Made by a program: the position numbers and the translations under genes
Notes under the pieces: generated by a model
What the model saw: only the letters and a program-made list of their open reading frames with translations
Told to the model about the DNA's origin: nothing
Databases searched by the model: none
Part shown: piece by piece, positions 34,364 through 63,519 of the stretch
How positions within the stretch are numbered: the first letter of the stretch is position 1
How the letters are laid out: the number at the start of each line of letters is the position of its first letter
Source: a virus
DNA: 64,000 nucleotides
Reading direction: 5' to 3' (one strand)
Virus record (IMG/VR): IMGVR_UViG_3300032070_000613
Span: 64,001 to 128,000 of that record

Positions 34364-36064
34364 ATGAATATAGATCCTCGTCATATTAAGCAAATATCAG
34401 ATACTAAGGCAACATTATCTGGTGCTGGTCCAAAAAGATTAAAAAAGAAGCAGATCGCTATTCAAGAAGATCTCTCTGCTAAAAGATTGTCTTTCAGAAC
34501 ATCTCTGAATGAATATGTCGAATGCGCAAATGTAGCTGATGCCACAGGCATTACCGGTCCTGCTGGTATACCAGGACCTACAGGGCCCTCAGCGGGTCCT
34601 CAGGGAGATACAGGATTACCAGGTCCTACGGGTATAGCAGGGACTTATGGGTTAACAGGATTGCCAGGGATACAGGGGCCTACAGGAGCTTTTGGTGGTG
34701 CTCCTGGAGAGACAGGATTGCTTGGGGCTACTGGCGTCCGCGGCATGACAGGTATTAACGGTCTTATAGGCAGTACTGGATCGCAAGGTTTAACGGGTGC
34801 GTCTGGTGTGACAGGTATTTCTGGAGTGACTGGTGATCAAGGAAATACGGGCGTCCAAGGTTTAACTGGTTCTCAAGGAGCTACTGGAGTATCTGGCGTT
34901 ACAGGATTGTTTGGTGTGACTGGAGATCAGGGGAATACAGGAGTACAGGGTGCGACTGGTGTAGGTCTGCAAGGAGTCACAGGAATTGGTGTCACAGGTC
35001 TCAGTGGGGTAACCGGCTCTCGAGGAGAGACGGGATCTCAGGGTCTCACCGGATTGATTGGAATCACAGGGCTCGAAGGGAGTACGGGTGTCCAGGGAAT
35101 AACTGGTGAACCTGGTTTGACCGGTATGCCTGGAATCACTGGTCAACAAGGCGCACAAGGGCTCACAGGTATCATAGGGATTACAGGAGCTCTTGGGACT
35201 ACAGGTTTTGTAGGAATTACAGGTTTTCAGGGAATAACAGGTCTGCAAGGATCCCAAGGGATAACTGGAGAACAGGGTGCTACAGGAGCTCTTGGGACTA
35301 CAGGTTATATAGGAATCACGGGTCAACAGGGAGCTCAGGGGCTCACAGGTGTTATTGGGCTGACCGGATCTCAAGGCATTACGGGAGAGCCTGGTCTAAC
35401 AGGAATTTTAGGCATTACAGGGATTGTTGGAGTTCAAGGTTTAACGGGAGATCAGGGATCTCAAGGATTGACTGGTACTATTGGATTAACAGGAACTATT
35501 GGAATTACAGGACAGCAGGGAGTATTTGGATTAACGGGATATGCTGGTATCACAGGTCCTGAGGGAGCTGGTGGTAATACGGGAGCACAGGGAGTAACTG
35601 GGAATCAAGGAGAAACAGGAGCTGGAATTCAAGGATCGACGGGATTGCGGGGATCAACCGGGATGTCTGGTATTGGTAGTGCAGGAGGCGTCACAGGAAT
35701 GATCAATATCACATTCAACGGTAATAGCAATCCTGTGTCTACAGGCGAAAAAACCATAATAAATCTACCGTTTAATTTACAGCTGGATGGCTGGAGATTT
35801 CTAGCGAATGCGACAGGGAGTATTTCTGTTGATATGGCCATCTCTAGCTATACTAATTATCCTTTTACAGGGCCTCTTATGCATGCCGGTTCTACAGGTC
35901 CTTATATATCTGCTGGAATAAAAAATGAAGATACAGATCTGAGTGATTGGGTTAATGCAACGGGAGCGGCAGGAGAACTAATCAGAGTTAGTGTAGGATC
36001 CGTGACAGGGATTTCTATGGCATATCTTTCTTTAAATTATCATCAACTCTATAATGTCATTTAA
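34364..36064 (+). CDS. Long Thr-rich collagen-like fibre protein with a C-terminal globular domain
   Basis: Several hundred residues of G-x-T-G-x-x repeats; SD AAGGAG upstream; the last codons and stop are supplied by the inserted element. Confidence 0.9.
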   Translation: MNIDPRHIKQISDTKATLSGAGPKRLKKKQIAIQEDLSAKRLSFRTSLNEYVECANVADATGITGPAGIPGPTGPSAGPQGDTGLPGPTGIAGTYGLTGLPGIQGPTGAFGGAPGETGLLGATGVRGMTGINGLIGSTGSQGLTGASGVTGISGVTGDQGNTGVQGLTGSQGATGVSGVTGLFGVTGDQGNTGVQGATGVGLQGVTGIGVTGLSGVTGSRGETGSQGLTGLIGITGLEGSTGVQGITGEPGLTGMPGITGQQGAQGLTGIIGITGALGTTGFVGITGFQGITGLQGSQGITGEQGATGALGTTGYIGITGQQGAQGLTGVIGLTGSQGITGEPGLTGILGITGIVGVQGLTGDQGSQGLTGTIGLTGTIGITGQQGVFGLTGYAGITGPEGAGGNTGAQGVTGNQGETGAGIQGSTGLRGSTGMSGIGSAGGVTGMINITFNGNSNPVSTGEKTIINLPFNLQLDGWRFLANATGSISVDMAISSYTNYPFTGPLMHAGSTGPYISAGIKNEDTDLSDWVNATGAAGELIRVSVGSVTGISMAYLSLNYHQLYNVI

Positions 36065-36280
36065 AAATGACGTTGTGGGAGTCTAGGGAGCTTATTCAAT
36101 AAAATGAATATGCAGACGTTACAACCAAAGTTCAAGAACGTACCTACGGATGCTTCACTAGTCCGTAGCTCTACAACTCTACCATTAAACAGGAACGAAA
36201 GCGCCAGTGTGGTAGAGAAAGTACTGAGTTGTAACAATCCCGAAGTGAATCTACGGAAACAGGTATCCGGACTTACAGTC
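36047..36280 (+). ncRNA. omegaRNA (HEARO-type) scaffold of IscB copy 1; boundaries approximate, guide expected immediately upstream
   Basis: CTACGGATGCTTCACTAGTCCGTAG stem, CTCTACCA/TGGTAGAG, ACAACTC/GAGTTGT, GTTACA/TGTAAC, TTCACT/AGTGAA pseudoknot, TAAACAG; highly conserved with copy 2. Confidence 0.82.
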
Positions 36281-37462
36281 ATTGTACCTGTACTCTCTTT
36301 GGAGGGGAGTCCTCTAATGCCGTGCACTCCAGTTAAAGCACGGCACCTTTTAGAAAAAAGGAGAGCCCATGTCGTAAAACTAAATCCTTTTATTATTAGA
36401 TTGAATTTCAAGTGTGAAAGCATAGTTCAGGAAATCAGTTTCGGAATGGATGCCGGATACAAAAATATTGGATATTCAGCGATTACAGATACAAAAGAAA
36501 TTTTATCAGGTGAAATAGCTCTGGATAATAAAACTAAAAGCAGAATGAACGAAAGAAAAATGTATAGAAGAAATAGAAGGTATCGTCTGAGGTATAGAAA
36601 ACCAAGATTCGATAATAGGGTAAAACCCGAGGGATGGCTCCCTCCCTCTATAAAGAGAAAATTTGATACCCATATAAATTTCATAAAAGGGCTCAAAAAA
36701 ATGTTACCTATCAAAAAGGTCACAGTTGAGATAGGAAATTTTGATATTCAAAAGATAGAGAATCCCGATATCTCTGGAGTCCAGTATCAGCAGGGTGATT
36801 TATACGGGTATTATAATTTGAAACTCTATCTTTTGGAGAGGGAAAAAGGAAAGTGTCAACTCTGCGGGAAAAAATTCACTAAAGAAAATAAACCCCACAT
36901 GCACCATATAAAACAAAGGAGTGAGGGTGGTACTAGTAGAGCTGAGGGTATCGCTCTTATACATAAAAGTTGTCATGAAGATTTGCATAAGAAAAAATTA
37001 TTTCATAAATTGAAACCAGCTAAAGCTTATAAAGCAGAAACTTTTATGTCTATAGTTGGAGGGATGTTCAAGAAATTTTTAGATTGTGATGTTACTTACG
37101 GATATGAGACGTGTGCTAAAAGAAAAGAGTTAGGTTTAGAGAAATCTCATGTGAATGATGCCTTTGTTATAGCCGGAGGGACTATTCAAACTAGATGCCT
37201 ACCTAGTATGATAGAGCAAAAGAGAATTAATAACAGGACTCTGCAGACGAATAGAAAAGGTTTTTCTTCTTCTATTAGGAAACAGAGGCATAAAATACAA
37301 AATAGAGATTTTATTTGGATTAGTGGTAAAAAATATTTGAGTGGAGGCGTGGCTAGTAGAGGGACTCAGGTATATTATTTTGATGGGAGTGAGAAGAAAC
37401 TCATCCCTTCTAAAAAGATTGAAAAAATTTATAATACTGATAATTTGATTTGGCTAGATTAA
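36104..37462 (+). CDS. iscB: IscB RNA-guided endonuclease (PLMP, split RuvC, RRXRR bridge helix, HNH)
   Basis: PLMP; GMDAG (RuvC-I); RRNRRYRLRYRKPRFDNR; VEIGNFD (RuvC-II); CQLCG...HHI...GG...CHEDLH; SHVNDA (RuvC-III). Confidence 0.95.
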   Translation: MNMQTLQPKFKNVPTDASLVRSSTTLPLNRNESASVVEKVLSCNNPEVNLRKQVSGLTVIVPVLSLEGSPLMPCTPVKARHLLEKRRAHVVKLNPFIIRLNFKCESIVQEISFGMDAGYKNIGYSAITDTKEILSGEIALDNKTKSRMNERKMYRRNRRYRLRYRKPRFDNRVKPEGWLPPSIKRKFDTHINFIKGLKKMLPIKKVTVEIGNFDIQKIENPDISGVQYQQGDLYGYYNLKLYLLEREKGKCQLCGKKFTKENKPHMHHIKQRSEGGTSRAEGIALIHKSCHEDLHKKKLFHKLKPAKAYKAETFMSIVGGMFKKFLDCDVTYGYETCAKRKELGLEKSHVNDAFVIAGGTIQTRCLPSMIEQKRINNRTLQTNRKGFSSSIRKQRHKIQNRDFIWISGKKYLSGGVASRGTQVYYFDGSEKKLIPSKKIEKIYNTDNLIWLD

Positions 37463-37487
37463 ATGTCGTTATAGAGTTAAAAACAAT

Positions 37488-40148
37488 ATGTACCGTTTTC
37501 CTATAACAATTGATAAAACCAAAGTCCAGAGCGTCAATAACAGCACGAGCTTTATTGACGTATCAGGCAAAGTTTGGACTGCCGCTGGTAACGCCAAGCT
37601 GAGTACCGGAGACTATGAATTTGCTCCAGCTTCTGGTGTATTTGATGGCAATGGTGATTACATATCTACGCCAAGTCACACCGACTTTAACATGACGGTT
37701 TCTGATTGTACGATAGATTTTTGGTTTAAAGCAAACTCATTTACTAATGGTTATCCTTTTTATACTACATCGGATACGCCAAACCCTACTTATGATAATA
37801 ATACCATGATATACCCATATAGTGATGGGCGTATTGGTATAGGTAAGCAAGGGTTAAATGAGATTGCATCTGCTGCAGGTACAATAACTACAGGAGTATG
37901 GACCCACGTAGCTGTAACAAGAACACAGGCTACAGGAGTTACTAAGATATATGTTAATGGCGTAGAGAAGGCAAGCAATACTACCGCTGTTTGGTCAAAT
38001 TCATCCAAATCTACTTATATTGGCGGTATGCCAACTGTCCGATTTTTTAATGGCATGATTGATGAGTTTAGAATCTCGAAGGACATCGTTCGTTGGACTT
38101 CCGATTTTTCCGTTCCTACAGCCAGGCACACTTTAGATTCATATACAAAAGTTTTACTTCATTTTGGCGATGATATTACTAACTTTCCGTTTTTATTCAA
38201 TGAAGGATGTAGCAGTATTCCTTCCGGATTCTGGTCGCACGTCGTCGATACTGTTTCAGGTTTAGATATTCGATTTTTCGATACAGACGGAGTAGCTGAA
38301 TTAAAGAGAGAGATCGTTCTATATAATTCTGGAACGAGTAAGGTTGAAGTATGGGTACAAATCCCATCACTGGGTACCGCTTCCAACAAAATTATTTACT
38401 GCCAGTATGGGGGTGCTACTAGAGCTAGTGACTATGATTTATGGAACGTTTTCACGCCCAAAGGAATTTATCACCTACAGAGTTTATCTGATTCTTCCAC
38501 GCAGAGTGTTAACCTGACCAATGTGGGCGCTTCTTCTACTACAGGAAAGATAGAAAATGGGTATAATTTTGATGGAAGCCACTATGTTTATAGGACGGAT
38601 ACAGATGATAAACAAGATATAACAGGCTCATTTACCATGAGTGTTTGGGTAAATCCTACTAGTTTACCTAGTATAGTAGGAACTATCATAGCTAAAAGAC
38701 TAAATGGTAGCGGAACACATAATTATATATTTGATGTTACATCCACTGGAAATGTAATTATCTATAACAACGGCCTTACTCCAGGATCTTTGACATCAAC
38801 GACAACCATATCAACTGGAATTTGGTCTTATGTAGCTGCTGTTTACAATGGCTCTACAGTAAAATTGTATATCAACGGAATTGAACGAGGGTCTCAATCT
38901 GTAACAGGAGCTCCTGTAGCCGATTCTGGACCCTTTGGGATAGGGGCAGATTATCCAGGCTCGTGGACAGATTTCTTTTCTGGAAAAATAGACGAAGCAC
39001 GAGTTTTTGCATCCGCTTTTTCGGCTGATTGGATAAAAACGGAATATAACAATCAGAATGATCCCTCTACTTTTTCATTATGTAGTGCAGAAGAAGATGT
39101 TACAAGAGTATACAAATTTCCTATAACAATTGATAAGACTAAGGTCCAAGGTACAAATACAAATTTCGTGTATTTGTTTTCTGAACTCTGCTCATCTATC
39201 CCTGCCGGTTTCTGGGCCCATGTAAAAGATTCAGGAGGATTAGACATAATATTTTTTGATACAGACGGTGTGACTGAGTTAAAAAGGGAAATAGTCCTGT
39301 ATTCTACCGGCACGAATAAGGTCGAGGCATGGGTACAAATCCTATCACTGGGTACCGCTTCCAACAAAATTATTTACTGTCAGTATGGGGGCGCTACCAG
39401 AGCCAATGATTCTACTCTATGGTCAGATGCCGAAGTAGTCAGTACATTCCACTATCAGGGAAATGCTAATGATTCTGGAGATAGCAACAACGGGACAGTA
39501 ACAGGAGCTGTACAAAATGACGGTAAAATACAGAAATGTTATAGTTTCGATGGTACAGGTAATAAAATCGCATCCGCTCATAATGCAAATCTAATACCAG
39601 CGAATATTTCACTATCTGCCTGGGTATATTGTAGGAGTTTTGTTGGAGCTACCGGTGGATATATGTGTGTCGTTAATAAAGGGCATGATGATGGTCTACA
39701 TGGGTATGATTTTGAAGTAAAAGAAAATGGAACTAAATTTAATGTAGCTTGGTATATGGCACATAATGGAGACTACTCCACTCCACTTTCTTCTACTAAT
39801 ACCTACGACAAAAATGCGTGGTACCATCTCGCTGTAACTTTTGACGGAACAGATGAAAAGATTTTTGTTAATGGAACATCGGACGGCACTAGAACAGATG
39901 CTTTATCATCTACACAGAATACGGGGAATTTCACTGTAGGTCGATTTGCAACTGATGGCGTGGGTCTCAACAGATATTTTGATGGACTCATAGAAGAAGT
40001 AAGAGCCTATAATGTGGCTAAAACTACTGATTGGTTTAAAACAGAGTATAACAATCAAAACGATCCCGCCACATTTTCATCCTGTGGCGCAGAATCATCT
40101 GTCATAGGAGAAGAAATTTTTACCGTATGGATACCAGGAATAATTTAA
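37488..40148 (+). CDS. Fibre protein with two DUF2341+LamG cassettes and an extra inserted LamG
   Basis: Two Y.FPITIDKTKVQ...EYNNQNDP.TFS.C units and three LamG cores (TIDFWF, TMSVWV, SLSAWV). Confidence 0.85.
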   Translation: MYRFPITIDKTKVQSVNNSTSFIDVSGKVWTAAGNAKLSTGDYEFAPASGVFDGNGDYISTPSHTDFNMTVSDCTIDFWFKANSFTNGYPFYTTSDTPNPTYDNNTMIYPYSDGRIGIGKQGLNEIASAAGTITTGVWTHVAVTRTQATGVTKIYVNGVEKASNTTAVWSNSSKSTYIGGMPTVRFFNGMIDEFRISKDIVRWTSDFSVPTARHTLDSYTKVLLHFGDDITNFPFLFNEGCSSIPSGFWSHVVDTVSGLDIRFFDTDGVAELKREIVLYNSGTSKVEVWVQIPSLGTASNKIIYCQYGGATRASDYDLWNVFTPKGIYHLQSLSDSSTQSVNLTNVGASSTTGKIENGYNFDGSHYVYRTDTDDKQDITGSFTMSVWVNPTSLPSIVGTIIAKRLNGSGTHNYIFDVTSTGNVIIYNNGLTPGSLTSTTTISTGIWSYVAAVYNGSTVKLYINGIERGSQSVTGAPVADSGPFGIGADYPGSWTDFFSGKIDEARVFASAFSADWIKTEYNNQNDPSTFSLCSAEEDVTRVYKFPITIDKTKVQGTNTNFVYLFSELCSSIPAGFWAHVKDSGGLDIIFFDTDGVTELKREIVLYSTGTNKVEAWVQILSLGTASNKIIYCQYGGATRANDSTLWSDAEVVSTFHYQGNANDSGDSNNGTVTGAVQNDGKIQKCYSFDGTGNKIASAHNANLIPANISLSAWVYCRSFVGATGGYMCVVNKGHDDGLHGYDFEVKENGTKFNVAWYMAHNGDYSTPLSSTNTYDKNAWYHLAVTFDGTDEKIFVNGTSDGTRTDALSSTQNTGNFTVGRFATDGVGLNRYFDGLIEEVRAYNVAKTTDWFKTEYNNQNDPATFSSCGAESSVIGEEIFTVWIPGII

Positions 40149-59083: not shown

Positions 59084-59779
59084 ATGATAATCGTTAAAAC
59101 TGTTAAAGAGTTCGTGAAACAAAATGAGAAACATCTCATATGGTTTTTGCAATATAAAACGGGTATCAACGATAGAGAAATGATCGATGATACTCTGCAG
59201 GAATTTTATATGCGTCTGTACCAGACAAAAGCTCTGGAGTCCTATGATGAAAAACGAGGTACTTTTGATACCTATATCGGCAATCTTTTCTGCTGGATGC
59301 TACCTTTCTTATCCAGGAAAAATTTCAAATACAGGCACACTCTGATGCCTAAACGGTATCGGGATAAATATCTGGATAAAAATGAGAAAGGCATTAGTAA
59401 TAATCATATGTATGATTATAGGATGATGTCCTATGTGAATAAGGATAACAGCAAAATGTGGGTGGATGGGGATGATGTTTTTAACTACGTCCACGAGAAT
59501 AGTGCCACATTTAAAATCAGCAAAGCATACGAAACATCTTATTTTGATACAGATGAAGATCCAGCCCTATCCGGATATCTGGAGAGTTTTAAAACATATA
59601 TCCGTGAGACAGAGTCCCCCAGGAGTGCGGAGAAAATGATACTGTTTTTGGAGCAGAGGGTGGCGGGATGCAAAGGCGTCGAGATAGCAGGTATGATGAA
59701 AGTATCAAATAACATGGTAAAAATCATCAAACATACTCTAAAAAGGAAATATGATACATGGCAGACGATAGACGCATAG
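59084..59779 (+). CDS. Sigma70/ECF-like phage sigma factor
   Basis: DDTLQEFYMRL...YDEKRGTFDTYI (region 2-like); GCKGVEIAGMMKVSNNMV (region 4 HTH-like). Confidence 0.65.
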   Translation: MIIVKTVKEFVKQNEKHLIWFLQYKTGINDREMIDDTLQEFYMRLYQTKALESYDEKRGTFDTYIGNLFCWMLPFLSRKNFKYRHTLMPKRYRDKYLDKNEKGISNNHMYDYRMMSYVNKDNSKMWVDGDDVFNYVHENSATFKISKAYETSYFDTDEDPALSGYLESFKTYIRETESPRSAEKMILFLEQRVAGCKGVEIAGMMKVSNNMVKIIKHTLKRKYDTWQTIDA

Positions 59780-60464: not shown

Positions 60465-61627
60465 CCGATGAAATAGACATCAGTGACATCCTGGAAGATG
60501 AGGTGGAGGAGAGTCCCGCTCAATCCCAAGTGACTCCGGCTATCCCCGACTCTCCAGACAGCCCCGCCCGGAAAGAAATAGCGCAGCTGAGAGATCGTCT
60601 GAGAGTATCTCACGAGCACTGCCGTGATCTTTTCGTGGATATGAGGACTGTGGACTACATAGCTACTCCCGATGACTCCTATATCGAATTTCTGGATAAA
60701 AATTATTACGACAAAAGGCTGTATTTTAAAGTGGACCCTCAGAGACCGAATGATCCTAAAATCATAATAGCCCAGCAGCAATTTTGCAAGCTGCTAGGTA
60801 TCCCCTATAAATTTTTTGCCGCTAACAGGCCCTCCCTGAAAATGAACATCGTGAAGACCTGGCAGGCAGGCCTGACCGCGGATGAGAGTAAAGCCCAGAG
60901 CGTCCTCAAAATTCGGGAGTCTAAAGATTGCTCTATCATCAGAGCATTCATACCAGTAACTAAATGCTGCGTACCTCTCTATGAACTCATAGACATAATC
61001 CTGAATGGCGTGACTATCCCTCTCACAATGGAGTTCGTGTACGGGGATGAAAGGGATGATTTGATATTACACGCCCGTTTTCTTTTTAACAAAGAATATA
61101 CGGTACTGGGATCTAAGGTGTGCGTGGGATTTTCTTTGATAGCGTCTGAGCTGGATGCCTCCCCATTCATAATAGAAATCTTTTTACATGATAAAGAGTT
61201 TGCAACTTCGTATATTAGTACATATGGCGGGGACCCCTTTTTCAAGTCTAAATATGACGGTATCAAAGCGGATCAAATTAAAGATCTGATCCCTAAAATG
61301 TTAAACAGAATCGATAGTGAAGCTCCCGAAATGATAGAAAGGGTAGAGAAGAAAGTATCCGATACTATGCAGAGCGGATTTTTTTGTGCGGAAACTGAGT
61401 GCGTATCGCTACTGAAAGCTAAGGGTATCAACGGCAAAGTGAAAAAAGCGGTATATCATCAGATTACTGAGTGCCAGGATAAAATCAAAACTCCCTGGGA
61501 TATTGCTCGTCACGTGGGTCTGGTGGCTAAAGATTTAGATTCGATAAAGAGGCTCGCTGTAGAGCGGGCTATAGGTCAATATTTGCGACTAACTTTTTCT
61601 AACCCTACAACGTCATATAAAAAATGA
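60461..61627 (+). CDS. DUF932-like protein; the last codons come from the inserted element
   Basis: QFCKLLGIPYKFF...IRAF pattern; acidic N-terminus. Confidence 0.55.
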   Translation: MTDEIDISDILEDEVEESPAQSQVTPAIPDSPDSPARKEIAQLRDRLRVSHEHCRDLFVDMRTVDYIATPDDSYIEFLDKNYYDKRLYFKVDPQRPNDPKIIIAQQQFCKLLGIPYKFFAANRPSLKMNIVKTWQAGLTADESKAQSVLKIRESKDCSIIRAFIPVTKCCVPLYELIDIILNGVTIPLTMEFVYGDERDDLILHARFLFNKEYTVLGSKVCVGFSLIASELDASPFIIEIFLHDKEFATSYISTYGGDPFFKSKYDGIKADQIKDLIPKMLNRIDSEAPEMIERVEKKVSDTMQSGFFCAETECVSLLKAKGINGKVKKAVYHQITECQDKIKTPWDIARHVGLVAKDLDSIKRLAVERAIGQYLRLTFSNPTTSYKK

Positions 61628-61840
61628 CGATGTAGGAGTCTAGGGAGCTTATTCAGTAACATGAATATGCAGACGTTACAACCAAAGTTCAAGAACGTAC
61701 CTACGGATGCTTCACTAGTCTGTAGCTCTACAACTCTACCATTAAACAGGAACGAAAGCGCCAGTGTGGTAGAGAAAGTACTGAGTTGTAACAATCCCGA
61801 AGTGAATCTTCACTGGAAACGGGTATCCGGACTTAAAGTC
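61603..61840 (+). ncRNA. omegaRNA (HEARO-type) scaffold of IscB copy 2; boundaries approximate
   Basis: Same stems as copy 1; CCGTAG->CTGTAG turns a G-C pair into G-U. Confidence 0.82.
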
Positions 61841-63022
61841 ATTGTACCCGTACTCTCTTTAAAAAGGAGTCCTTTAATGCCTTGCGGTTTGATCAAAGCT
61901 CGTCACTTAATTAAAGGAGGTAAAGCAAAAGTAGTTAAACTGAACCCACTAGTCATTCAGCTTAAATTTGACTGTGAAAACCAGATCCAAGATGTTTCTT
62001 TAGGTATTGATTCAGGCTATAAAACTATTGGATTCTCGGCTGTTTCTGAAATAAGAGAAGTTAGCGCTGGTGAGCTGAATCTAGATAATGGAACATCAAA
62101 AAAGTTAATAGAAAAGAAAATGTATCGAAGGCATAGAAGAAACAGGCTGAGATACAGAAAACCAAGATTTAATAACAGAAAAAAATCTTCTGGGTGGCTT
62201 CCTCCTTCTATTCAGAGAAAATTTGATACGCACCTCAATCTGATAAAAAAGATAAAAGCTATAGTACCGGTTAAGAAGCTAACCATAGAGATAGGGGAAT
62301 TTGATATTCAAAAGATAATGAACCCTGAGATTTCAGGCAAAAAATATCAGCAAGGTAATTTATTTGGGTATAATAATATGAGGTCTTTTTTGATAGCTCG
62401 TGAGAAAGGGAAATGTCAGTTATGTGGAAAAAAGTTCAGTAGAGATGATCCCTCTCATATGCATCATATAAAACCAAGGATTATGGGAGGTACTGATAGA
62501 CCCGATGATTTAGCTTTGGTACATAAAAGCTGTCATGATAAGATTCACAAGGAAAAACTTTTTAACAAACTCAAAAAAGCCAAGGAGTATAAAGCTGAGA
62601 CTTTTATGGCTATTGTAGGGGCTAAATTTAAAAAAGTTTTGGATTGTGATATTACATATGGGTATGAGACTAAGACTAAAAGAGATTTATTGGAGATAGA
62701 TAAAAGCCATATCAATGATGCATTTGTAATAGCTGGTGGATCTACGCAGAAAAGATGCAAGCCTTATAAAATAGAACAGAAAAGGATCAACAACCGGACT
62801 CTGCAGACTAATAGGAAAGGTTTTTCAAAATCTATTAGGAAACAGAGGCATAAAATACAAAACAGGGATTTCATTTGGATTGATAGTAAAAAATATTTGA
62901 GCGGGGGCGTGGCTTGTAGAGGGACTCAGGTATATTATTTTGATGCGAATGAGAAGAGGCTTATATCTTCAAAAAAGATAGAAAAAGTTTATCATACAGG
63001 GAGTTTAGTGTGGCTAAATTAA
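61661..63022 (+). CDS. iscB: IscB RNA-guided endonuclease
   Basis: PLMP; GIDSG; RRHRRNRLRYRKPRFNNR; IEIGEFD; CQLCG..HHI..GGTDRPD..CHDKIH; SHINDA. Confidence 0.95.
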   Translation: MNMQTLQPKFKNVPTDASLVCSSTTLPLNRNESASVVEKVLSCNNPEVNLHWKRVSGLKVIVPVLSLKRSPLMPCGLIKARHLIKGGKAKVVKLNPLVIQLKFDCENQIQDVSLGIDSGYKTIGFSAVSEIREVSAGELNLDNGTSKKLIEKKMYRRHRRNRLRYRKPRFNNRKKSSGWLPPSIQRKFDTHLNLIKKIKAIVPVKKLTIEIGEFDIQKIMNPEISGKKYQQGNLFGYNNMRSFLIAREKGKCQLCGKKFSRDDPSHMHHIKPRIMGGTDRPDDLALVHKSCHDKIHKEKLFNKLKKAKEYKAETFMAIVGAKFKKVLDCDITYGYETKTKRDLLEIDKSHINDAFVIAGGSTQKRCKPYKIEQKRINNRTLQTNRKGFSKSIRKQRHKIQNRDFIWIDSKKYLSGGVACRGTQVYYFDANEKRLISSKKIEKVYHTGSLVWLN

Positions 63023-63096
63023 ATGACGTTGTAGAGCTAAAAAAAATTGAAGAAATTTTTGATGCTATTATCCTCAAACACATAATAAATGATATT

Positions 63097-63519
63097 ATGA
63101 AGAGTAGAAAGGTGTCCCCTCAGGATGAAGTCACCTATCAGCTCGTAGAGAAGGAATATAAGGGTACGACGTATGTAATAAAAGCAGAGCACGTACCGAT
63201 AGAGCATCTGATCAAATATTCGTCATCGAACTGTAAGAAATGTAATAGTAAAGGGTACAGCATCATCTATGTGAGTAAATCCAAAATAGCTAACCCTCAG
63301 GATTTCGTAGTGCTGGCGGATAGATCCGTAGAAAAAATGTCAGATGAGGAGAAAAAGCTCTGGCTCGAAGTGGAAAAGAAAAAGCCTACGTGGAGGGTCA
63401 TGCTCCCCTGTAAGTGTACCATAAAAAATATATCTAAAAAAGAGCACACGATCGTGGCCAATGATATGGGGAATATCGTGGCTAGACTATCGTATGAAAT
63501 AAAACAGGAGCAACTATGA
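63097..63519 (+). CDS. Hypothetical Zn-finger protein
   Basis: CKKC...CKC; start moved from 63010 (inside the element) to the in-frame ATG at 63097. Confidence 0.65.
   Translation: MKSRKVSPQDEVTYQLVEKEYKGTTYVIKAEHVPIEHLIKYSSSNCKKCNSKGYSIIYVSKSKIANPQDFVVLADRSVEKMSDEEKKLWLEVEKKKPTWRVMLPCKCTIKNISKKEHTIVANDMGNIVARLSYEIKQEQL

Follow-up and report, generated by a model that had tools for sequence, protein, structure and literature searches.

An IscB–omegaRNA cassette between two conserved giant-phage genes: occupied and empty alleles, diverged flanks and a possible case of RNA-guided homing

The proposed role of OMEGA nucleases is to skew inheritance in favor of the elements that carry them. The closest described systems to the one considered here are the IscB elements of the ISC type within the IS200/IS605 group (ISGst5 with GstIscB, Meers et al. 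2023; OgeuIscB, PDB 7XHT and 7UTN). These have a nuclease with PLMP, RuvC and HNH domains and a HEARO omegaRNA that is encoded upstream on the same strand, with the guide position abutting the native flank. They are co-oriented with the upstream gene, an orientation bias that is known for IscB elements (Meers et al.), and they mostly lack a nearby tnpA gene, as do ~98% of all iscB genes (Meers et al.). A target-adjacent motif (TAM) on the 3' side and of the NWRRNA type is that of OgeuIscB (PMC12660989). The same architecture, omegaRNA placement and orientation, and a compatible flank motif, are found in E2, a 1434-bp IscB–omegaRNA cassette in the IMG/VR virus record IMGVR_UViG_3300032070_000613. 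This record is 141 kb long and ~30% complete. The window, the whole stretch of DNA that was analyzed, is 64,000 nt long and covers record positions 64,001-128,000.

E2 differs from the ISC elements in several ways. The first stem of its omegaRNA (P1) is cut down to one 13-bp hairpin, and there is no hairpin-bearing end past the IscB stop codon. Its ends form an 18-bp inverted repeat, it resides in a phage genome, and its ends supply the stop codon of the upstream gene and apparently the Shine–Dalgarno (SD) sequence and start codon of the downstream gene. The reading we favor, with belief and doubt about evenly divided, is that E2 is a compact IscB–omegaRNA cassette, with no transposase in the record, that would have spread by RNA-guided homing and recombination and brought its flanks from another phage.

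Presence or absence between conserved phage genes is also a feature of the homing endonuclease genes of T-even phages (SegF, SegB and I-TevI), which are associated with co-conversion and localized marker exclusion. As with E2, their flanks are most diverged beside the insertion and return to near identity within a few hundred bases. The T-even enzymes recognize their target by protein, whereas E2, which is known from sequence comparison alone, would use a guide RNA derived from its flank. A second parallel comes from TnpB, which drives IS605 through plasmid populations without TnpA, according to the account of Mears et al. (2025) given in PMC13565253. In this gene drive, also described as transposon non-restorative homing, the OMEGA nuclease cleaves the orthologous element-free site on another replicon, and the element is copied in by repair with no need for TnpA, the same mechanism that is proposed here for E2. 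The drive involved TnpB on experimental plasmids, whereas E2 is a natural phage IscB element with comparative evidence only. To our knowledge, TnpB on laboratory plasmids is so far the only case in which TnpA-independent homing from one replicon to another has been demonstrated, and a literature search that was not exhaustive found no described natural example of phage IscB homing. The present locus is a natural viral IscB locus with both allele states, occupied in the window and empty in the metagenome contigs L031 and L032, which makes the homing idea directly testable.

The locus with and without E2

E2 occupies positions 61603-63036 on the plus strand, between two conserved co-directional genes of a large (giant) phage, and the reading frames of both neighbors remain open. 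The upstream gene encodes a protein for which 54 homologs were found. A Pfam search with this protein gave no significant match, and the label DUF932-like that it received in a first-pass annotation is thus unverified. The five closest homologs (P0001 and P0212-P0215, at least 92% identity) end RLTFSKD* (the asterisk marks the stop), and distant homologs end F[SAG]K[DE]*. In the window, this ending is altered from ...TFSKD to ...TFS+NPTTSYKK*, as the reading frame runs eight codons into the first hairpin of E2 before it reaches a TGA. None of the homologs ends in NPTTSYKK, the outcome that the first-pass annotation had named as refuting its case, and E2 is therefore an insertion.

Element-free alleles were recovered as DNA in L031 and L032. 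There the upstream gene ends ...CTGCGACTCACCTTTTCTAA GGAC TGA GGTCAA ATG TCG GAA CAG AAA GCA..., that is, SKD and a stop, an SD sequence and then the start of the downstream protein, MSEQKAPLES.... Homology between the left flank of the window and its relatives continues at 85-90% right up to 61602, which makes the boundary at 61602/61603 exact and the CTAA to the left of it native coding sequence. One of the six members of a 90% cluster carries E2, and because genomes that lack the element match the window at 96-100% identity in the neighboring DNA, its gain or loss must be recent. The claim that E2 is an independent mobile insertion is upheld by the close relatives without it and by the exact left boundary. 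E2 thus shows presence or absence at a single locus among close relatives, together with diverged flanks, which is the pattern by which homing elements are recognized.

The right junction is a different matter. The downstream protein is a conserved neighbor in every relative examined (L006, L008, L031, L032 and L033). Compared with L031, ~25 nt of the native junction is gone from the window, including the rest of a lysine codon, the aspartate codon, the stop, the SD sequence, the ATG and the first codons of the downstream gene. Homology of the downstream protein extends upstream of its first ATG (63097), which points to the GTG at 63010, the only in-frame start available, as its start. The downstream gene thus appears now to begin inside the right end of E2, with an SD sequence that the element itself provides. 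The same layout was observed in the nearest viral relative (L004:3640-3680, from IMGVR_UViG_3300048803_000071; IscB 56% identical), where the downstream gene, which encodes a tape-measure protein, has its ATG within the final four codons of IscB and a GGAG six bases before it. The first omegaRNA stem of the L004 element is also a single hairpin.

To the right of E2 lies a patch of coding sequence that is only 33-56% identical to the close relatives. Identity recovers to 87% by ~63110 and to 93-100% farther on. In a three-way comparison, the patch differs from L031 as much as the distant relative L033 does; outside the patch, the window is 87-100% identical to L031, compared with 50-70% for L033. 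The left side shows a longer and shallower trough. Against L032, the window is 96-98% identical at 60470-60900, then 81-89% identical for ~700 nt up to E2, ~50% identical just to the right of E2 and again 95-100% identical within ~300 nt. In the left tract, the residues HARF, FKSK, LNRID and AIGQ are shared with distant homologs, and the empty alleles all share other states. These residue states and the identity trough place E2 in a tract that is foreign to the backbone, and because such divergence cannot accumulate in place beside DNA that is 96-100% identical, the tract was imported by recombination. The homing idea, which was raised in the first-pass annotation, would fit both the presence/absence polymorphism and the divergence of the flanks centered on E2. 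As a separate difference between the same genomes, a 231-aa open reading frame (ORF) at 59084-59779 is without a counterpart in L032, and homology resumes abruptly at ~59776, which marks another indel.

The empty alleles also bear on what the ancestral site looked like. The 1434-bp element, the CTAA on both sides of it and the motif YTAAAAA at the right flanks of both IscB copies in the window are all present in the sequence, and removal of E2 with one CTAA does give ACT TTT TCT AAA AAA AAT TGA (TFSKKN*), as was originally calculated. The proposal that this is the native end of the gene and a reconstructed empty site does not hold, as it matches no allele seen; relatives have TCTAAGGACTGAGGTCAAATGTCGG... 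in its place. For every reconstruction tried (a single CTAA, the flanks joined directly, or the right flank taken from AG), the downstream frame contains a TAA at 61590-61592 and then no ATG, GTG or TTG before the conserved part. A rebuilt site that leaves the conserved downstream gene with an in-frame stop and no start codon could not have worked as an ancestral allele. In the empty alleles, the sequence is TCTAAGGACTGAGG... instead of TCTAAAAAAAATTG, with the caveat that relatives of the L031/L032 type are not direct ancestors of this haplotype.

IscB, omegaRNA and guide

The membership of E2 in the IscB/OMEGA family is secure as judged from domains and active-site residues. The ORF matches the Pfam families RRXRR (4.7e-56) and HNH (2.3e-12), and it matches the IscB chains in the PDB with E values from 1e-34 to 1e-40 (OgeuIscB, about 1e-34). 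It has the PLMP domain, split RuvC and inserted HNH that make up the IscB architecture, and the catalytic residues of RuvC and HNH (D, E, HH and H..D) are invariant in an alignment of E2, a second copy in the window called E1 and two viral relatives. The IscB proteins of E1 and E2 are 67% identical, with a ratio of nonsynonymous to synonymous substitution rates (dN/dS) of about 0.14, indicating purifying selection. The start codon of the E2 protein is uncertain (Table 1); a start at ATG 61877 would remove a conserved N-terminal strand.

The omegaRNA lies directly upstream of IscB on the same strand, and its 5' end falls at the element boundary. The match to the Rfam HEARO family covers 61587-61812 and is above the gathering score, as are the matches in E1 and in a third copy, E3, which is an omegaRNA only. 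Over its first 200 nt, the E2 omegaRNA is 95% identical to that of E1. A promoter scan found no promoter of its own for the E2 omegaRNA, which makes read-through from the upstream gene, with which E2 is co-oriented, its probable source.

In canonical relatives, P1 is a larger multi-hairpin structure of the form GTCAAC...GTTGAT, where E2 has one hairpin of 13 bp (RNA fold -20.8 kcal/mol, z -4.6). Among bacterial and archaeal relatives (IscB proteins at 36-55% identity), the similarity between copies begins exactly at this first stem, GTCAAC.... The P1 stem of E1 needs G-U pairs and therefore works as plus-strand RNA and poorly as minus-strand DNA. The idea that the hairpin is a native terminator that was split by the insertion was rejected, because NPTTSYKK is missing from the homologs and the hairpin occurs in each of the three copies.

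The last 16 nt of the native upstream gene abut the scaffold and so occupy the guide position, 16 nt being the length assumed for IscB guides in general. As originally suggested, the guide probably comes from the native left flank, given that flank homology reaches 61602 and that the similarity of canonical copies starts at the first stem. The predicted guide matches the empty allele of L031 and L032 at 14 of 16 positions. No second target for any of the three guides (E1, E2 and E3) was found in the record.

Table 1. Coordinates of the features in and around E2 (positions in the window)
Feature	Position	Strand	Details
Upstream conserved phage gene	60461-61627	+	ORF; stop TGA 61625-61627 inside the first hairpin of E2
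Predicted 16-nt guide	61587-61602	+	GACTAACTTTTTCTAA; native flank, including the left CTAA 61599-61602
omegaRNA scaffold, HEARO class	61603-61870	+	Rfam RF02033, 85.4 bits, E 8e-16
P1, first omegaRNA stem	61603-61636	+	Single hairpin: 5' arm 61604-61616, loop 61617-61623, 3' arm 61624-61636
IscB coding sequence	61802-63022	+	Stop TAA 63020-63022; start GTG 61802 or ATG 61661
SD-like GGGAG (62999-63003) and GTG (63010-63012)	62999-63012	+	Within the last IscB codons; GGGAG six bases upstream
Downstream conserved gene	63010-63519	+	169 aa; 164 aa, start MSEQKAPLES..., in relatives without E2
Right inverted repeat	63019-63036	+	Inverted match to 61603-61620 at 16 of 18 positions; in direct orientation, a copy of the P1 3' arm
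CTAAAAAAAAT	63037-63047	+	Common to E1 (TTAAAAACAAT), 9/11; includes the right CTAA
Divergent right-flank patch	63037-~63108 (~70-90 nt)	+	In frame, homologous to the 5' end of the downstream gene

Ends, repeats and the sister copy E1

The ends of E2 are CCCTACAACGTCATATAA on the left (61603-61620) and TTAAATGACGTTGTAGAG on the right, an inverted match at 16 of 18 positions. Inverted repeats of this quality are found at the ends of both E1 and E2 (16/18 each), and none of 5000 shuffles reached 16/18 for either element. In E2, the left repeat doubles as the 5' arm of P1. Only 14 nt of the element remain beyond the IscB stop, and there is no hairpin at the right end, where neither strand of the DNA folds better than shuffled sequence. 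The inverted repeat may serve in pairing of the ends in single-stranded DNA or RNA, or in recognition by some protein. Two ideas about the ends were discarded. A resemblance of the right end to the native SD-ATG region (TCAAATGTCGG compared with TTAAATGTCGT) is put down to chance, as the same end pairs 16/18 with the left arm and occurs in E1. Covariation of the left and right ends between E1 and E2 amounts to one compensated position only and is not significant.

CTAA is read directly on both sides of E2, at 61599-61602 and 63037-63040. Two random 4-mers of this genome match with P = 0.005 at fixed boundaries. The 4-base repeat is nevertheless weak evidence on its own, because E1 has TCAA and TTAA at the same places, all three left flanks end in AA, and the left CTAA of E2 is native in the empty alleles. 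An origin of the left 4-mer as a motif encoded by a transposon can be set aside, since it is native in the empty alleles and in P0061, a homolog of the protein encoded upstream of E1.

The motif YTAAAA has a frequency of 0.0017 per position in this genome, so its occurrence at the right junctions of both E1 and E2 is not due to chance. The sequence at 63037-63047 may be a target or TAM motif, or else E2 itself may end with these bases; the motif is missing from the empty alleles, which have GGACTGA there. YTAAAA is compatible with NWRRNA. This compatibility, the two right junctions and the conserved C-terminal end of E1 and E2 make YTAAAA a reasonable guess for the TAM.

E1 (36047-37476) has the same architecture as E2. 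TCAA precedes it and TTAAAAAC follows it; the right flank reads TTAAAAA, so that the repeat is TCAA against TTAA, or three of four bases. A word-index search with the C-terminal domain of the fiber gene upstream of E1 gave no match; an exhaustive protein search found homologs. All seven that were inspected end H/N-x-x-stop, for example, YHQR*, YHQI* and YHKT*. P0061, which is 98% identical and lacks E1, ends YHQR*, and the window (36043-36064) reads YHQ+LYNVI*. The presence of YHQ before LYNVI* means that the CAA, and hence the left TCAA of E1, is native. Reconstruction under a duplication model gives ...YHQKQYVPFSYNN*, which conflicts with the conserved H-x-x-stop end. If the left 4-mer is dropped, the result is YH*; the flanks joined directly read HQLKTICTVFL*, and only a flank that starts at the AG of GAG gives YHQS*. 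Judged by these endings, E1 gives no support for a 4-bp duplication, and no simple reconstruction restores the conserved end of its neighbor. As with E2, the native gene junction seems to have been replaced by E1, and the gene that follows E1 (ATG 37488; junction 37474-37490) has no recognizable SD sequence.

E1 and E2 are mosaics of one another. Their omegaRNAs are 95% identical, the central coding regions are 55-75% identical with a saturated synonymous divergence (dS of about 2), and the last ~80 codons are 85-92% identical (dS 0.8, dN 0.09). This suggests gene conversion between the ends of E1 and E2 or a swap of the middle. The near-identical omegaRNA and C-terminal end would fit the use of one shared scaffold and one shared TAM.

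A target-site duplication is unsupported, as the empty alleles of E2 differ from the predicted site and E1 has TCAA and TTAA without a workable reconstruction. The first-pass annotation had taken E2 as support for a model of terminal inverted repeats with a target-site duplication, and neither the empty alleles nor E1 fit the duplication. The tidy 4-base "duplication" is no evidence that IscB has switched to a cut-and-paste carrier.

How the cassette may have spread

For homing, the proposed series of events would run as follows. The omegaRNA would be made by read-through and processing, with the native end of the upstream gene as its guide. IscB would then cut homologous genomes that carry a match to the guide followed by a TAM, probably YTAAAA. 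The occupied site, where the guide match is followed by CCCTAC, which is neither YTAAAA nor NWRRNA, would be spared. During co-infection, the break would be repaired from the element-bearing genome such that the cassette and flanking DNA are copied, i.e., by "non-restorative" homing. The present copy of E2 most likely arrived in this manner, given ~700 nt at ~86% identity on its left and ~90 nt at ~45% identity on its right. The CTAA repeat would then not be a transposition scar: the left copy would be native coding sequence, and the right copy part of the shared YTAAAAA motif.

Several points count against homing. The known empty alleles may resist cleavage, because they have two mismatches over the 16 guide positions and GGACTG at the TAM position. 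The genomes are mosaic elsewhere too, with identity dips at ~64730 and ~65600, and the trough at E2 could reflect ordinary recombination whose position matches that of the element by chance. No donor allele was found. With the record ~30% complete, a transposase may be encoded by the host or by another part of the phage genome. Finally, homing alone explains neither the three loci (E1, E2 and E3) nor the 16/18 inverted repeat, and no reading considered here explains the inverted repeat.

Searches for further copies or alleles covered both reference and metagenomic viruses. A megablast search of the region against 50,697 GenBank phages gave no match. In IMG/VR, exact peptides of the upstream gene and the scaffold motif gave no match, and an alignment query returned only relatives at 51% identity. 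The right-end motif had 28 matches in IMG/VR, about the estimated chance number, and none of them came with IscB or an omegaRNA. The pattern of the rebuilt empty site had three matches there, all unrelated.

A wider proposal, which we regard as tentative and somewhat doubtful, is that IscB–omegaRNA cassettes of giant phages gave up transposase-based mobility and spread as natural RNA-guided gene drives from one co-infecting phage to another. Their ends would have been reshaped for harmlessness, and the inverted-repeat ends and E3 would be part of this lifestyle. For E2, the first hairpin would give the upstream gene its stop, and the last IscB codons would give the downstream gene its SD sequence and start. 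Features such as the greatly reduced omegaRNA stem, the absence of a non-coding end and junctions that preserve the neighboring genes may inform the minimal requirements of IscB systems.

It seems unlikely that E2 is a canonical non-autonomous IS200/IS605 (ISC) element that is moved by a Y1 TnpA acting in trans from the host or from an unsequenced part of the phage. Such an element would insert without a scar beside its TAM (TTTAR on the minus strand, YTAAA on the plus strand), IscB would only restore or retain it, and the CTAA match would be a coincidence. The combination of IscB and HEARO is hallmark cargo of this family, and the scarcity of tnpA beside iscB genes (absent for ~98%) is in line with supply in trans. 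The hairpin close to the boundary at the omegaRNA end is as expected, an A/T-rich motif of the kind expected of a TAM is common to both right flanks, and the presence of copies at three loci of one genome implies that transposition did occur at some stage. Membership in IS200/IS605 is not shown, however, because neither the pair of hairpins nor the transposase is found. The hairpin is present only at the omegaRNA end (z -5.2 for E2), and the far ends of E1 and E2 do not fold better than shuffled sequence, whichever strand is used. Canonical relatives (L018-L021) have ~100 nt of non-coding sequence with a hairpin at the far end, compared with the 14 nt of E2. The left hairpin of E1 is poor as minus-strand DNA, the strand that TnpA would use. 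No match to the Y1 (HUH) TnpA family, PF01797, was found in the 141-kb record, which is ~30% complete. This model predicts a donor empty site in which the left flank is joined directly to CTAAAAAA. Joining the flanks without a deletion gives TFSN* and no start for the downstream gene, whereas the real empty allele differs by ~25 nt and the diverged patch.

More improbable is the model of the first-pass annotation, a cut-and-paste transposon with 18-bp terminal inverted repeats and a 4-bp YTAA-like duplication, mobilized by a DDE-type transposase. In its favor, the inverted repeat takes up precisely the two ends of E1 and of E2 and is beyond the reach of shuffling. The CTAA repeat is perfect at E2 and three-quarters matched at E1, and the flanks, read inward, are similar and T-rich. 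Against this model, the left repeat is simply the 5' arm of P1 and the right one also equals the 3' arm as a direct repeat, and the CTAA to the left of E2 and the CAA to the left of E1 are native coding sequence. Removing E2 with one repeat recreates neither the allele of the five close relatives nor a functional junction, and the corresponding removal of E1 gives the ...YHQKQYVPFSYNN* ending, set against H-x-x-stop in 7/7 homologs inspected. Among the families tried (DDE_Tnp_1, DDE_3 and resolvase), no DDE transposase or resolvase was found in the record, and motif searches of IMG/VR found no other elements with these ends.

A domesticated, immobile cassette, in which IscB and its guide RNAs, including E3, serve as a weapon against competing phages or host DNA and the flanks are leftovers of an old insertion, would account for the purifying selection on both IscB copies and for a solo omegaRNA ~10 kb away with compensatory stem changes and a consensus promoter, but it is very unlikely given that the gain or loss of E2 is recent relative to genomes 96-100% identical nearby, that its guide is simply the end of the adjacent gene, as expected of a selfish element, and that the three guides have no second target in the record.

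The solo copy E3 is located at L003:1431-1750 (G000:C1 about 137360-137680), ~9.4 kb past the end of the window. It consists of an omegaRNA that scores 90 bits against HEARO, with no IscB gene. Its guide, TAAGCACAAGCAGTAA, has no second match in the record, and E3 could be a trans-acting extra guide for the IscB of E1 or E2. The left flank of E3 ends in GTAA, and one stem has compensatory changes relative to both E1 and E2. E3, which heads a Ro60-linked RNA array, is preceded at a distance of ~45 nt by a consensus sigma70-like promoter, TTGACA-17-TATATT.

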